In this document: piece by piece, positions 4,384 to 63,344 of the stretch
How the letters are laid out: every line of letters begins with the position of its first letter
Position numbering within the stretch: the first letter of the stretch is position 1
Assembly (NCBI GenBank): GCA_964016885.1
Contig: OZ024757.1
Location: forward strand, 23,064,001 to 23,128,000
Length of the DNA: 64,000 nt
DNA from: Eledone cirrhosa
Taxonomy: Eukaryota
Reading direction: 5' to 3'
Notes under the pieces: model-generated
What the model was told of the DNA's origin: nothing
The model's database searches: none
The model's input: only the letters and a program-made list of their open reading frames with translations
Position numbers and translations under genes: made by a program

Positions 4384-4486
4384 AGATTAAAATTTAAGCA
4401 AAGAATCGCTGCTTTCACCCTTAACGGGATCTTCTGAAGATCCCGTTAAGTGTGAAAGCAGCGATTCTTTGCTTAACCTTTAATCT
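4384..4486. repeat. fold-back palindrome centred on a hammerhead-like core
   Basis: Arms ttaagcaaagaatcgctgctttcac..cgggatcttc / gaagatcccg..gtgaaagcagcgattctttgcttaa; ctgaaga-tcccgttaagtgt-gaaa at 4434. Confidence 0.8.
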
Positions 4487-4609
4487 CTTATATTAATATA
4501 TATATATATATATATACATACACAGAGTTATAAATCTAAATACTTATATATATATAAACGATGATGATGATATATATATGTATACATACACATAGAGTTA
4601 TAAATATAA

Positions 4610-4641
<32 letters not shown>

Positions 4642-4723
4642 GTTTACATATACATAATCACTCACATACATAAGCATATGTATATATAGGTTTACGAATA
4701 TACACACACATACAGACCAACAA

Positions 4724-4797
4724 AAATTTCTCTCATTAATCAAGAAACACTTCCATAAAGACAGCCAGCACCTTCATAAGTTATTCAACAGCAACTC
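4724..4797 (+). pseudogene. short Penelope-like element ORF remnant
   Basis: Translates KFLSLIKKHFHKDSQHLHKLFNSN, like the FL.LI.KHF...H.LHK.FN.N motif between RT and GIY-YIG in Neptune/Poseidon-type PLEs (from memory). Confidence 0.5.
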
Positions 4798-4934
4798 CAG
4801 AAATGCTTATTATTTGAGAAAAGATAATCTTTTTCTTTCGTAATGAGAAAATCGTTAAACTCTTCCTGATCCCCCTAACAAAAAAGATAATTGTAATATT
4901 CATAACTAACCAATAATAAACATAACTAACCATA

Positions 4935-5116
4935 CGAGTGTCAGCTGAAAAGCTGACCAAGATATTCTCATGGAATGACCAAATGAGGTATATTTTTCAA
5001 CTCAGTCCCTCGAAAGAAACAGTTATTAATAAAAAGAGTTGAAATTAATGCAAGATTTCCAAGCTCTAGCATCACTCTTTCATAGTCAGCATATGAACTT
5101 TGCAGCCTTCCCTTGT
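4935..5116 (-). mobile_element. mariner-type MITE
   Basis: ta|cgagtgtcagctgaaaag ... gcagccttcccttg|ta; same family as 10818 and 33029 copies. Confidence 0.7.
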
Positions 5117-5468
5117 AGTACTGTATCGTACATTAGTGTAACTGAAAACTCATTGAAGAGCTAACAAAACCAGCATATATACCATTTTGAACCTCATCGC
5201 AAAGAAAATGCTGCAGTTCTTTAGAAGCATATATGGCAAAAGAAAGATAAATATGGGTGTATTGATATTGCACGATTTGTCTTAGACAGAGTGATGTCCT
5301 ACAATAATTGTAAACAAAATCATGCAATTTGTGTTTGTCTGAGAAATATCACATCACCAAACAACTCACACCAATAAGTGTATATATTTATACTTACGGG
5401 TGCAGTCTCAGTTATACACACTGTACTTATACAGATATAACTTTATCATACACTTTAGCTGCTAGTGC

Positions 5469-5545
<77 letters not shown>

Positions 5546-5549
<4 letters not shown>

Positions 5550-5950
5550 TTTAGCGAGGTTTTTTATATGAAATCGTGTGTCGAAACAGATATTGTTATA
5601 TTTGGGGAGGGTCATATTTGCGTAAATATATAGACAGACTGAATAAAAAAAATGGCGTAGACATACAACACAACAGGAGGAATAATGAATATAACACCAC
5701 TGACGATGTTGCAGATGTGCAACGAAAGATTTATGTAAATTATGTAAACTATATATATGTGTTTGTGTCTATATTGTATCTGTATTATTTTTGACCGCCG
5801 GTCAGTCAATGGCAACATTGAGGACCGAGTAAGTTAGATCGCAGATATAAAAGACAGCGAGAAGCGAAAACCAACCAAACAGTGAGTGTGTTCTGTTATT
5901 AATTCTGGCAATATTACGCAAATATGACCCTCCCCAAATATAACAATATA
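5546..5950 (+). mobile_element. TA-flanked island with 36-bp inverted repeats and partial hammerhead core
   Basis: Arms ~5591-5626 / 5914-5949; ctgacga-t-gttgca-gatg-tgcaac-gaaa at 5700-5727. Confidence 0.6.
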
Positions 5951-6218
5951 TATATATATATATATATATATGAAAGACGTAAAATAAGAAAATTATAAAA
6001 ATTAACTTACTTAGCATACACACATGCACACATATATATATATGTATATCATGGTCACCTGACACAACTTGCCTCTAACGGAACAACCTGTCTAACCCAG
6101 GCTGGCATGAAAAATGGACGTTAGATGATGATGATGAGGATATATATATATACCCATGCTAGCGTGGAAGATAGACGTTAAACGATGATGATGATGATAA
6201 TATATATATATATATATC

Positions 6219-6265
<47 letters not shown>

Positions 6266-6834
6266 GTGTTTGTGTGTGTACTAAGACATTGAGAATGAAG
6301 GCCAAAGACTTCATTATACCAAAGAGACAGAGAGAAAAGTTAGAGAGAGTGTGTAAGCAGAGAGATAGAGAGAGAGAGAGAGGGGGACAGATAGGTCTAT
6401 AGAATACATGTGTATTTGTTTGGCCATATAAATAATGAGGATGATGATGATGATACACAGAGAAAGATTTTAATTATATTTGACATAATTTGTTTGTAAA
6501 ATATGATAGAAACAGAATTTGGTGCGGGGGCAAGGACAGAGAAAATATATTCTTGTAATTGGACTTGTTGTGACCTTGTTAACCTCCGATACTAGAGGAA
6601 TAAACAACATTACCATGTTGAGATCAATATCATTGAAGATAAGACTATGTAGTTGAGACATCTATTAGTAAAGATAAAGCAATCAACTTAAGATCGATAT
6701 TAGTAGAGGGGGGGGGGTAATATGACTAGCAATTTAAGATAAATATGTGTGAGATTGAGACTTGACAGCAGAGGAGGGGGAGATAATATTTGAAAAGATA
6801 CACTATGTAAGATATCTTTCTTGCTTTAATCGAT

Positions 6835-7340
6835 CGACAAGATCCCGGACTTCATTTGCTCACCGAGTCTGGTGGAACTTGTCAAATTGAGCCATTAGTC
6901 TTTCCATTACTTGATACTATTGTCCTGTCACAACTCCTAGCAGAAAGAGCAATGTGAATTTAAGTGCCTTGCTCAAGGACATAACTCACCAACTGATCTA
7001 GGAATTGAACTCACAACCTGATGCTTGTGAATCCAATTCTCTAACTACTAAGTCACAACATCTTCCTTTAGATGCAATGTATAAAAAATATAGGAATTTA
7101 TCAACAAGATCCCAGACCTCATTTGTTTACTGAGTGTAGAGGAACTTGTCAAATTGGACAAAAGAAACATTGTTTCCATCTTTCCATTTTCTGATACTAT
7201 CTACCAGTCGTAACTATTGGCAGAAAGAGCAATGTGAAATAAAGTGTCTTGCTCAAGGGCATAACAGATTGCCTGGTTCAGGAATAGAATACACAACCTC
7301 ATGATTGTGAATCAAGTTACCTAACCATTAAGCCATGTAA
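6835..7340 (-). mobile_element. two tandem degenerate SINE A copies with alternative tail
   Basis: gagcaatgtgaa..aagtg.cttgctcaagg..ctaac.a.taag in both copies; shared caagatccc tail. Confidence 0.75.
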
Positions 7341-7459
7341 GATATTATTAAAGAATAAATGTAACCATTCTGACACAGAACTAGCTGAAACTACCCCTGC
7401 CTTTATGATACTAAGCTGTTTATTTTAAAGCATTTATATCTATCTAAATATCTTCTTTA

Positions 7460-61298: not shown

Positions 61299-61346
<48 letters not shown>

Positions 61347-61350
<4 letters not shown>

Positions 61351-61665
61351 TCATTATCATCATTTTATGTCCACTTTTCCCTGCTTGCAAGGGGGAACTG
61401 ATTCTGGCTTGATTTCTACAGCTGGATGCCCTTCCTAACACCAACCTCATTTACAGTGAGTGCTGGGTGCTTTTTTTCCATGGCACCTCCACGACCACTT
61501 TGCAGTGGAATGATATGGACCCCAGTCCCTATCATCTCATTTTCTACAGCTGAGTAAACTGGAGCAATGTGAAATAAAGTGTCTTGCTCAAGGAAACAAC
61601 ACATCACCTGGTCTGAGAATTGAACTCACAACCTTTCGATTGCAAGGCCAATGCTCTAACCACTA
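61347..61665 (-). mobile_element. SINE A
   Basis: Reverse complement of the 3928 copy; short inverted head piece at 61666-61690. Confidence 0.9.
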
Positions 61666-61752
61666 AGAGCATTAGTCTTGCAATCGAAAGTATATATATA
61701 TATATATTCCATGATATTAAATAAATGGAAACTATATTTATAAAACCATATT

Positions 61753-61817
61753 TATTTTATTATATATATTTCGAGGGCAACCAAGACAACATTGGTACGC
61801 TTTCTTCAGATAAAATA
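61753..61817 (-). ncRNA. type I hammerhead ribozyme in ~280-bp TA-flanked element (61710-61985)
   Basis: tattttat-CTGAAGA-..taccaa[tgttgtc]ttggt..-GAAA-t[atat]a-TA-ataaaata. Confidence 0.8.
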
Positions 61818-61984
61818 CAAAGTTTGTTTTATAAATAGAGATGTACCCATGAAAATTATACCTTATCGGTTGGAAATTCACTGGATAGTCTGGAATATTT
61901 ACTCCAGTTACCTGTTGAGTGTTCTAAATCAGTTATAAACATTTATGTTTGTTGGACTTCCAACAAATTAAATACAACTTCTGC

Positions 61985-62030
<46 letters not shown>

Positions 62031-62035
<5 letters not shown>

Positions 62036-62250
62036 AACGAGTAGGACCCCAACGGCTGAGCTCAAGCCATTTCGACGGCTAATTCTGGATGGCTAATTCT
62101 TGACTAAATTTTAGTCCAGAATTAGCTGTCGAAACGACTTGAGTTCAGCCGTCGGGGTCCTACTCGTTCCTATTGCCCACTCTACTACCCTAAGTATTGA
62201 GTACTTTGGTGCATTATGGTCCATCTGGTTCCTTACCACATTTCCTTCAT
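62031..62250 (-). mobile_element. TA-flanked head + fold-back palindrome
   Basis: Palindrome 62031-62173; head 62250-62174 with aagtactcaa..gagt. Confidence 0.75.
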
Positions 62251-62446
62251 TATATATATATATATATATATATATATGCAAAAGTTTTATATAAAATTGT
62301 TGGGTTACAACAAGTAAATATTTTATAACTGATATAAAGCACTCGACAAGTTTTGGAGTAGAAAACCTACCAAACCAGCTTCTTATATAAAGGTTGGTCA
62401 ATATTTATGGTACGTCAAAATTATTTATAAAACTGTTTATATATTG

Positions 62447-62512
62447 TATTTTATCTGAAGAAGGCATGCCATATTTTTAATATGGTATCCCCGAAATATG
62501 TATAATGAAATA
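62447..62512 (+). ncRNA. type I hammerhead ribozyme in ~280-bp element (62278-62555)
   Basis: tattttat-CTGAAGA-aggcatgccatat..atatggtatcccc-GAAA-t[atgt]a-TA-atgaaata. Confidence 0.75.
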
Positions 62513-62579
62513 AATATGGTTTTATAAATATAGTTTCCATTTCTTTAATATCGTATATATAAATATATATATACGATAT

Positions 62580-62796
62580 AGGCGTGTGGCTGAGTGGTTA
62601 GAGAATTGGATTCGCAATCGTAAGGTTGTGAGTTCGATTCCTGGACCAGGCGATGTGTTATGTCCTTGAGCAAGACACTTTATTTCACGTTGCTCCTTCT
62701 ACCTGGAGTTGCGACCGATAGATAGTATTAGCAATTGGAAAGACCAACGGAAACATTGTTCCCTCGGTCCGATTTGACGAAAGTCGATCGTTCCTT
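62580..62796 (+). mobile_element. SINE A with alternative tail and 12-bp TSD
   Basis: A/B boxes; TSD tatatacgatat at 62568-62579 and 62797-62808. Confidence 0.9.
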
Positions 62797-62842
62797 TATA
62801 TACGATATTAATAAATGGAAACTATATTTATAAAACCATATT

Positions 62843-62907
62843 CATTTCATTATACCTATTTCAGGGATACCACATTAAATTATGGTATGCCTTCATCAGA
62901 TAAAATA
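62843..62907 (-). ncRNA. type I hammerhead ribozyme
   Basis: tattttat-CTGATGA-aggcatacca..tggtatccct-GAAA-t[aggt]a-TA-atgaaatg. Confidence 0.8.
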
Positions 62908-63344
62908 CAATATATAACAGTTTTACAGACACCCTCACATATATAAACACAGTCAGTGCAGAAATTATAACAATCACCGACTAGATAGCTTTCAAAAATT
63001 ACCTGAGTTATGTGTTGTCTAAGAGATAGAGTTTGAACCTCGAAACCCAGCATCTATTAATCTATTATATATAACTTCCCAGTTAATGCATCCCAAACAA
63101 TTATTTTGTCAATGCATGAAGACTGAAAGATTATAGTGCCATGGGAAAATTTCAAATCAAAAACAGGAAGCTGAAGATTTAATACATCACTGTGTATATT
63201 ATTCACAGCAGCAGTTATGAAATAATTGAGGTGTTTGCAATTTATATAATGCCTTTAGGATTGTGGTTGATATATTGATGTGTCTGTCCTACCCTTACCC
63301 TTGCTAGCAGAGGGGGGAAAAAAATGATGGACCTTAAAGTGATG

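Follow-up and report, generated by a model that had tools for sequence, protein, structure and literature searches.

The DNA considered here is a 64,000-nucleotide stretch of the genome of Eledone cirrhosa (assembly GCA_964016885.1, contig OZ024757.1, positions 23,064,001 to 23,128,000), referred to below as the window. It contains eleven complete type I hammerhead ribozyme folds and several partial cores, belonging to repeat families that we named A to M. The explanation that accounts best for the whole, and that we hold to be very probable, is that the hammerheads are the 3' ends of Penelope-like elements (PLEs), joined by a group of elements (the M group, after family M) in which the hammerhead is scrambled and likely self-cutting. 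The PLE identity itself, with many families inserted in TA microsatellites, is almost certain. The window is rich in simple repeats and has a GC content of 35%; the genome comprises 3.0 Gb in 1,796 contigs.

The scrambled motif is represented in the window by the partial core at 39606-39741. It belongs to family M, which has a non-coding tandem unit of 622 bp, a 48-nt tail, 1,352 candidate places and an insertion anatomy like that of the other families. In whole copies of family M the conserved blocks follow one another in the order cut site, GAAA, CUGANGA, which is not a circular permutation of the hammerhead. We considered whether 39606-39741 could be the remains of a type I or a type II fold and rejected this, as the pairing required for either was absent. 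An extra helix downstream of CUGANGA, first suspected by eye, was likewise discarded, since the strand concerned belongs to distal stem III, and no other helix was found. Among the Rfam matches listed for the family M unit there was no hammerhead. With a descriptor written for the scrambled order we detected additional variants whose stems differ in sequence. Three of these (L180, L196 and L224) come from an unbiased genome sample of 59 evenly spaced 10-kb stretches (589,800 nt), in which a model search returned truncated scrambled copies as well. A pattern consisting of GAAA and CUGANGA at fixed spacing had 21,655 matches in the genome and none in its control. The site block is not part of this pattern; in the first 30 matches it pairs in 21, is cut off in 4 and carries point changes in 5.

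In an alignment of 13 variants, 18 of 24 pairs in stems I to III show compensatory changes, a value reached by none of 500 shuffles, and slid controls were only 31-43% paired. Compensatory pairs were also observed outside the descriptor used for selection, in distal stem III (5/6) and in stem II (3/6). The catalytic positions (U16.1, GAAA, UGA-GA, and H17, which is never G) are invariant or nearly so. Stem II is formed with a strand that precedes the site block, 37 nt upstream of GAAA; this partner was found in 26 of 30 cases, whereas the arm after CUGANGA pairs with the strand before GAAA in only 2 of 30. With its stem II arm 5' of the motif, the core is open between A9 and 10.1. Several points have to be held against this interpretation: the aligned rows are related and were picked for stem I and proximal stem III, the pair 10.1-11.1 holds in only 4 of the 13 variants, and the blocks defined by Eckert et al. 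(2023, PMC10085705), as stated in the available part of that paper, do not provide for a break between A9 and 10.1. On balance, we consider the fold highly probable, and the group is predicted to represent an undescribed pseudoknotted hammerhead topology.

The nearest known arrangement is type SGC, the site-GAAA-CUGANGA order for which cleaving examples from metatranscriptomes are given in the passages available to us of the same paper (Eckert et al. 2023, PMC10085705). The M group shares with it the block order, the full core and the pseudoknotted, covarying stems I and III. The two differ in stem II, whose partner is located 5' of the site block in the M group and after CUGANGA in type SGC, so that block C is split in the former. 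As these passages hold a break between A9 and 10.1 to be impossible, we did not file the M group as type SGC. Moreover, the M group is found in animal retroelements and its cleavage is predicted, whereas type SGC was found in metatranscriptome contigs thought to be virus-like RNAs. In the open-access literature we found no prior description of the scrambled fold in retroelements, although the preprint and Eckert supplements might list eukaryotic examples.

A link to known elements was provided by the Naiad PLEs. Craig et al. (2021, PMC8557442), in the text available, flagged eight Naiads as "HHR_half_core" and stated that Naiads lack canonical hammerheads; at their 3' ends GAAA precedes CUGANGA, as in the M group. 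In 30 passages of the supplement, compared by eye, eight entries of five distinct types in its Naiad part fit the split arrangement, among them Naiad_Obim, Naiad_Ovul, Naiad_Aacu and Naiad_Anas. In these ends, again by eye, stem III comprises 5-10 bp and stem I 5-6 bp, stem I being weak in one of them; stem II, of 6 bp with a closing G-C pair, is formed with a 5' segment. The other Naiad ends in these passages have the normal order; the split arrangement is therefore not universal. Unlike the coding Naiads, the M group is non-coding, and its driver was sought in the genome. An open reading frame (ORF) of the Naiad type, with an N-terminal endonuclease and a C-terminal reverse transcriptase (RT), was found neither in 46 GIY-YIG loci (the best 30 of 150 and 16 chosen for long frames) nor upstream of the copies examined in this non-exhaustive search. 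The scrambled group was thus left with no autonomous partner found, a point against the explanation given here. A short motif of a published octopus Naiad end had no genome matches. A homologue search started from a genome endonuclease returned 17 proteins, which were taken as C-terminal-endonuclease types from their lengths and domain lists.

The scrambled motif was also detected, with identical spacing, in two metagenome contigs of eukaryote-like DNA (L344:1716-1808 and L393:3319-3411). In both contigs it lies directly 3' of the end of a decayed, non-PLE retroelement ORF, which we take to resemble the restriction-like endonuclease of other non-LTR (non-long-terminal-repeat) elements. An atlas search with the ORF beside L344 matched only unnamed clusters. 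In the metagenome and viral pattern scans, 96 of the 98 matches examined were due to chance.

As to cleavage, we collected 107 distinct scrambled copies, of which 30 have a short 5' extent; 17 of these were dropped by hand (7 had been selected by the truncated query from the window and 10 were artefacts). Six of the 13 remaining truncations start 1-4 nt from the predicted cut (p = 0.0016). The corresponding counts at their own cut sites were 0/32 for truncated copies of families A to D and 3/13 for those of family E; the site of family C had been placed 3 nt too early in this count, which does not affect it, as no copy was present within 25 nt. This pile-up fits an RT running off cleaved RNA. 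It is, on the other hand, a post hoc observation on small numbers, and the predicted cut site ends in TA, so that microhomology could have produced it. From these data and the conserved core we consider it likely that the scrambled motif cleaves. Minimal type I motifs would have to dimerize to cleave and would be inefficient, whereas the three full stems of the scrambled motif would allow it to act as a monomer. The same motif may be a conserved RNA structure that does not cut, for instance an RT binding or folding signal in which the hammerhead letters are a relic. A9 is indeed not followed by its stem II arm, the closing pair 10.1-11.1 is often broken in this genome, and PLE hammerheads were dispensable for insertion in vitro in the part of the study of Frangieh et al. 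(2024, PMC11167929) that we could consult. Against this stand the catalytic positions, invariant or nearly so not only in the 13 variants but also in the published Naiads of distant animals, in which 10.1-11.1 is a G-C pair by eye, and the six truncations at the predicted cut; a structure without activity thus appears rather unlikely. We give somewhat better than even odds to the combined view that the order stem II arm, cut site, GAAA, CUGANGA, with all three stems pseudoknotted, is a ribozyme cutting as a monomer, that it is the missing ribozyme of many Naiads across animal phyla, and that it is a mobile module shared by Naiads, non-autonomous PLEs and another non-LTR element, with more than 21,000 copies in this genome. 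If so, non-circularly permuted ribozymes would extend to animal genomes, CUGANGA could no longer be assumed to form one block with its stem II arm as a rule, the statement that Naiads lack hammerheads would have to be revised, and current descriptors would be missing a whole class.

The type I folds were analyzed with a relaxed descriptor, and 100 dinucleotide shuffles of the window, performed in 500-nt blocks, served as the control. Eight folds were found in the window (starts 20925-, 21179+, 39230-, 39487+, 56391+, 61753-, 62447+ and 62843-), as compared to a mean of 0.23 and a maximum of 2 in the shuffles; a stricter first version of the descriptor gave 4 folds versus 0.07. Three further folds (41274-41365 on the minus strand, 41529-41620 and 54243-54295 on the plus strand) have a bulged stem II, which kept them out of the descriptor matches, and were accepted on visual inspection; the pair at 41.3-41.6 kb represents the U3-A8 core variant. 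The folds have the minimal type I features, namely a CUGANGA/GAAA/UH core, paired stems I and II and a short palindromic or near-palindromic stem III, and (TA)n adjoins all eleven. In these respects, the initial annotation of the window, which had listed eleven complete folds with such stem III loops next to (TA)n, is borne out, and so is the excess over shuffled sequence on which it had made its claim depend, both in the window and in the genome sample. It had, however, treated them as eleven loci. Three pairs of folds are the two arms of single head-to-head insertions, with an arm complementarity of 96-97%, and were counted twice, so that the eleven folds correspond to eight insertions of six families (A to F). 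The partial cores that it reported are also real. Most of them are truncated or decayed type I cores (4434+, 5700+, 21514-21593, 21870-22276 and 62031-62173, by eye and by inverted-repeat evidence), but 39606-39741 is not type I, being the rearranged fold described above, which the initial annotation had not recognized. An Rfam search of the window gave no hammerhead among the best 150 of 415 matches, microsatellite matches filling the list.

In the genome sample, the type I descriptor found 32 folds in 22 stretches, as compared to 0-2 in each of ten shuffles; the 33 stretches that belong to the four largest contigs and the other 26 contributed 16 folds each. The resulting density of about 52 folds per Mb extrapolates to approximately 150,000 per genome. 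The 3' half core of the group of families D, B and F alone had 92,312 genome matches, versus 47 for the reversed pattern. With other descriptors, 126,247 motifs have been reported for the 28-Gb axolotl genome and more than 6,000 for Acropora millepora, and about 9,000, also with a different descriptor, for Xenopus tropicalis in the passages available of Cervera and de la Pena (2014, PMC4209133). The density in E. cirrhosa is among the highest that we found in the literature.

The identity of the elements was deduced from the 30 best genomic matches of each of families A to E. A full family D element consists, in this order, of a hammerhead with tail, an intact ORF of 741 aa, a long 3' untranslated region and a second hammerhead with tail; the unit of 3.7-3.9 kb thus has the arrangement pLTR-ORF-pLTR (pLTR, pseudo-long terminal repeat). 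A 179-aa piece of its RT has 35,007 candidate places, and all 150 that were scored were at least 97% identical. The 741-aa protein carries YRDD, assigned by motif to RT, followed near the C-terminus by YVGST of a GIY-YIG-type endonuclease. It further contains RWR and DKT (in the alignment of this protein, P0001, with the best 59 of 120 listed proteins, the position of the second R is K in 44 and R in 13, and T of DKT is present in 53), a CxCx5C linker, CxxC before E and CxH after N, and by eye it lacks CCHH. By eye it tracks the published alignment of the Hydra clade motif by motif, and these motifs are conserved across the 60 aligned proteins. Both insertion in (TA)n and a canonical hammerhead are present in family D. 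A profile of D-type proteins matched in 7 of the 59 sampled stretches, covering 2.0% of the bases, and in family B a homologous endonuclease ORF was found upstream in 3 of 30 loci. Another full-length Hydra-type element of a different family, with a unit of 5.2 kb and U3-A8 hammerheads at both ends, is located at L207:620-5896 on the minus strand. The nearest named relatives of the retroelement proteins of the kind found in the window are from Argonauta hians. Families D and B therefore appear, judging by motifs, to derive from an RT-endonuclease gene of the Hydra clade. Three points weigh against this assignment: a Pfam search with D fragments found neither the RT nor the GIY-YIG domain, the D units exceed the described Hydra elements (less than 3 kb), and the clade was assigned by motifs and by-eye comparison with published text.

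Families A, C, E and M are non-coding and tandemly arranged, every unit carrying a hammerhead (in family M, the rearranged motif). The unit measures 1.3 kb with 1,261 candidate places in family A, 604 bp with 1,673 in family C, and about 450 nt with 2,348 in family E. Family F could not be traced to a full element. Two joins were observed beside these: at L239 (oriented 1760-1990) a family E tail is fused directly to an inverted Hydra endonuclease fragment, and at L154 family B is fused to another Hydra ORF. These joins may be template switches and would then connect the Hydra RT with non-coding families. The genome is also rich in other PLE clades, with 10,595 GIY-YIG candidates; among the loci L442-L487, L131, L037, L181, L142 and L256 are proteins that we presume from their motifs to be Neptune-, Nematis- and Poseidon-like.

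We conclude that Hydra-type PLEs, together with non-coding partners, have undergone a large, young radiation, which the type I cluster represents; this little-studied clade is accordingly a large and young part of the genome. Much of what had first been proposed for the window holds: the minimal PLE-type hammerheads (by descriptor and by the full D elements), the targeting of microsatellites by many families (six in TA tracts) and the very large genome-wide repertoire. The proposal that the elements are non-autonomous would apply to A, C and E, whereas D and B copies are 5'-truncated coding Hydra-type PLEs, and the islands of 250-600 bp taken for elements are products of truncation and inversion. 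The kind is also not a novel one. Minimal hammerheads with palindromic stem III, the U3-A8 core, pairs on opposite strands 100-700 bp apart and many families per genome were all described for metazoan PLEs in the passages available of Cervera and de la Pena (2014, PMC4209133), so that the type I part was known, and the supplement of Craig et al. (2021, PMC8557442), as far as available, lists Hydra-1_Obim of Octopus bimaculoides with a hammerhead. As described in those parts, the Hydra clade resembles family D in its C-terminal GIY-YIG domain, RW[K/R], DKT, CxCx5C, CxxC and CxH, insertion in (TA)n and a type I hammerhead near the 3' end. The differences are the unit length (3.7-3.9 kb, and 5.2 kb in L207, versus less than 3 kb), the clear pLTRs and tandems of D ("no pLTR" for Hydra-1_Obim), tails of 85-110 nt versus 30-40 nt, and the tens of thousands of young copies in many families here.

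The insertions follow a common anatomy. In every family the element terminates in (TA)n at either of two fixed positions, which are 36-110 nt apart, the gap between them being the tail. Elements are partial tandems truncated at variable 5' points, and head-to-head insertions use one site per end. Where both ends could be resolved, exactly one was tailed in 13/14 insertions of family A, 21/21 of B, 12/15 of C, 14/14 of D and 11/11 of E, and in 14/14 among 20 full-length D copies. Only insertions with an intact inverted partner entered these counts; after loci from the same insertion or with shared flanks had been removed by hand, the rule held in 75 of 78 (p = 2.6e-19 against 0.5), leaving three exceptions. 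The tail arm is longer in some loci and shorter in others, and inverted pieces consisting of the tail only occur at 8 loci; both observations exclude a simple fold-back. Where subfamilies exist, both arms belong to the same one: in full D elements the two arms differ by 1.0% from each other and by 7.6% from other loci (5/5), and in family C by 5.7% versus 8.2% (9/12). The tails of A, B, D and F begin with a small hairpin, in which R-Y-U-C pairs with G-A-R-Y; about five other families have a looser form of it. In its strict form it occurs 11 times in the genome sample and 0-3 times after shuffling, and it is a candidate RT signal. Tail arms stopping at start site 1 (about 6/61, counted by hand) are near expectation. 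A search for adenosine-to-inosine editing of the template RNA, visible as a sense-strand A>G excess, was negative in five families (ratios 0.6-1.55, no specific singleton signal).

The coupling of a single tail to each insertion favors twin priming at two RT start sites. The protein, probably a dimer, would nick both strands of the TA tract, reverse transcription would be primed twice, once per start site and likely on one uncut RNA, and the two cDNAs would be joined at their growing ends. As the ribozyme is situated 40-150 nt 5' of the first start site, it would be included in the copy. The PLE machinery would also serve the non-coding families A, C, E and M; family A shares its tail hairpin with B and D. 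In the available part of the in vitro study of Poseidon PAc (Frangieh et al. 2024, PMC11167929), the tail is likewise the gap between two internal RT start sites, and both strands of an AT-rich target are cut and extended; no start-site difference between strands was seen there, whereas the genomic insertions use one site per end. The passages available of Craig et al. (2021, PMC8557442) mention that the tail is often at one end, a loose remark that would now become a near-strict rule testable in the existing in vitro PLE system. A literature search on twin priming with Penelope gave nothing relevant among the papers listed.

That both primings occur on one RNA we judge to be only slightly favored. 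Two RNAs of one source element, one per protein subunit, or a fold-back of one cDNA offer a less probable but serious alternative. Two transcripts of one source would also give arms of the same subfamily, and in family B 19 of 30 5' junctions (L145-L174) fall between -163 and -171 relative to end 1, where a natural CATATG palindrome is a hotspot of truncation and joining that would suit fold-back or annealing. Two independent RNAs give no simple reason for the strict coupling unless the dimer is asymmetric, and fold-back can make neither the tail-only inverted pieces nor both classes of arm length. The arms, for their part, give twin priming less than full support: their similarity is uninformative in star-like families (2/9 in young D, small differences in A and E) and could be mimicked by later gene conversion. 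The three exceptions to the rule weigh in the same direction. The tails of E, C, H, K and M, which share the A/B/D hairpin loosely or not at all, count against the overall explanation.

Two wider readings of the elements were compared with the PLE identity. Small non-autonomous retrozymes replicating through RNA circles made by the hammerhead, the initial reading taken as a whole, would account for the non-coding tandem units of 450-1,300 nt in A, C, E and M. Such units with a hammerhead are shared with the non-LTR retrozymes (Cervera and de la Pena 2020, PMC7229834; Li et al. 2026, 10.64898/2026.07.22.740005), which are likewise probably moved by PLE proteins and are argued by Li et al., in the part available, to be non-autonomous PLEs. 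However, A, C, E and M have the full PLE anatomy of inverted truncated partner, tail and TA target, are mostly dimers and not long arrays, and include in family A a unit beyond the retrozyme range of 51-972 bp given in those sources. B and D are coding, the element ends do not coincide with the cut site but follow it at a distance of 40-150 nt and more, no long multimers were present among the loci examined, and no truncated A to D copy starts at the cut; RNA circles as a general explanation are accordingly improbable. Fold-back DNA transposons targeting TA (miniature inverted-repeat transposable elements), with the hammerhead look incidental, would have long inverted arms flanked by TA, as seen here, and a mariner-like fragment is present at 20055-20609. 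Arm lengths and junctions nevertheless differ at every locus, the ends are asymmetric and the copies extend into RT genes; the variable junctions ruled this candidate out, and we give it practically no credence.

The hammerhead-related features of the window are as follows.

4290..4503, no strand assigned: head-to-head hairpin that breaks off at a type I core with a 3-bp stem II (CTGAAGA at 4434); of the arms, only the left one has a tail-like extension; by eye
5695..5750, plus: decayed type I core with intact stem II; by eye
20604..20739, minus: family A, tail and last 45 nt of the left arm; arm comparison and inverted repeats
20740..20918, no strand assigned: unrelated dispersed repeat inside the family A left arm; more than 10 other matches in the window
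20919..21082, minus: left arm of family A, containing the type I hammerhead 20925-20998; arm comparison and descriptor
21095..21291, plus: family A right arm with hammerhead 21179-21252, no tail; genome matches and descriptor
21310..21593, no strand assigned: head-to-head insertion of family H that breaks off in stem II, leaving just the 3' half of the core; of its arms, only the left one has the tail; whole fold seen in loci L182 and L205
21870..22276, no strand assigned: hairpin with a decayed type I core in both arms; by eye
39105..39361, minus: family B left arm with 88-nt tail and hammerhead 39230-39300; arm comparison and descriptor
39426..39600, plus: family B right arm with hammerhead 39487-39557, no tail; putative 3' end of a Hydra-type coding element
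39606..39694, minus: family M left arm with the CUGANGA block of the rearranged hammerhead and 48-nt tail
39690..39741, plus: family M right arm with GAAA and CUGANGA blocks, truncated just 5' of GAAA
41209..41419, minus: family C left arm with U3-A8 hammerhead 41274-41365; arm comparison and by eye
41475..41685, plus: family C right arm with U3-A8 hammerhead 41529-41620; genome matches and by eye
54091..54340, no strand assigned: family F, inverted tail 54091-54189 and 5'-truncated body with hammerhead 54243-54295 (plus)
56292..56570, no strand assigned: family E, inverted 36-nt tail and body with hammerhead 56391-56440 (plus)
61708..61982, no strand assigned: D-group insertion, body (minus) with hammerhead 61753-61817 and inverted tail 61893-61982
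62031..62173, no strand assigned: hairpin of family G that breaks off in stem II, leaving just the 3' half of the core
62275..62555, no strand assigned: family D, inverted 85-nt tail (62275-62362) and 5'-truncated body with hammerhead 62447-62512 (plus)
62803..62925, minus: D-group single arm with hammerhead 62843-62907, no tail; descriptor and inverted repeats

Further short inverted repeats that could not be attributed to a family are present at 5590-5949, 16548-16587, 24463-24524 and 61633-61690. DNA contigs aligned to 61350-63200 gave a very deep repeat cover, which is not a measure of copy number; an empty target site could not be recognized in this alignment. The left end of the family C insertion (41180-41212) abuts a hairpin-plus-CTAG end, at the same base in three loci including L058 and L060; we presume this end to be similar to the 3' end of a Helitron. 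The mariner-like fragment, on the minus strand, is a piece of a Tc1/mariner-like transposase (DDE_3, E = 0.0018, under the cut-off) interrupted by the TA tract of the family A insertion. A short ORF at 53173-53493 on the plus strand had no match in Pfam, and we assume that it resembles the C-terminal restriction-like endonuclease of a non-LTR element. Copies of a repeat resembling a tRNA-derived short interspersed nuclear element were recognized by eye at 61561-61667 and 62576-62700.

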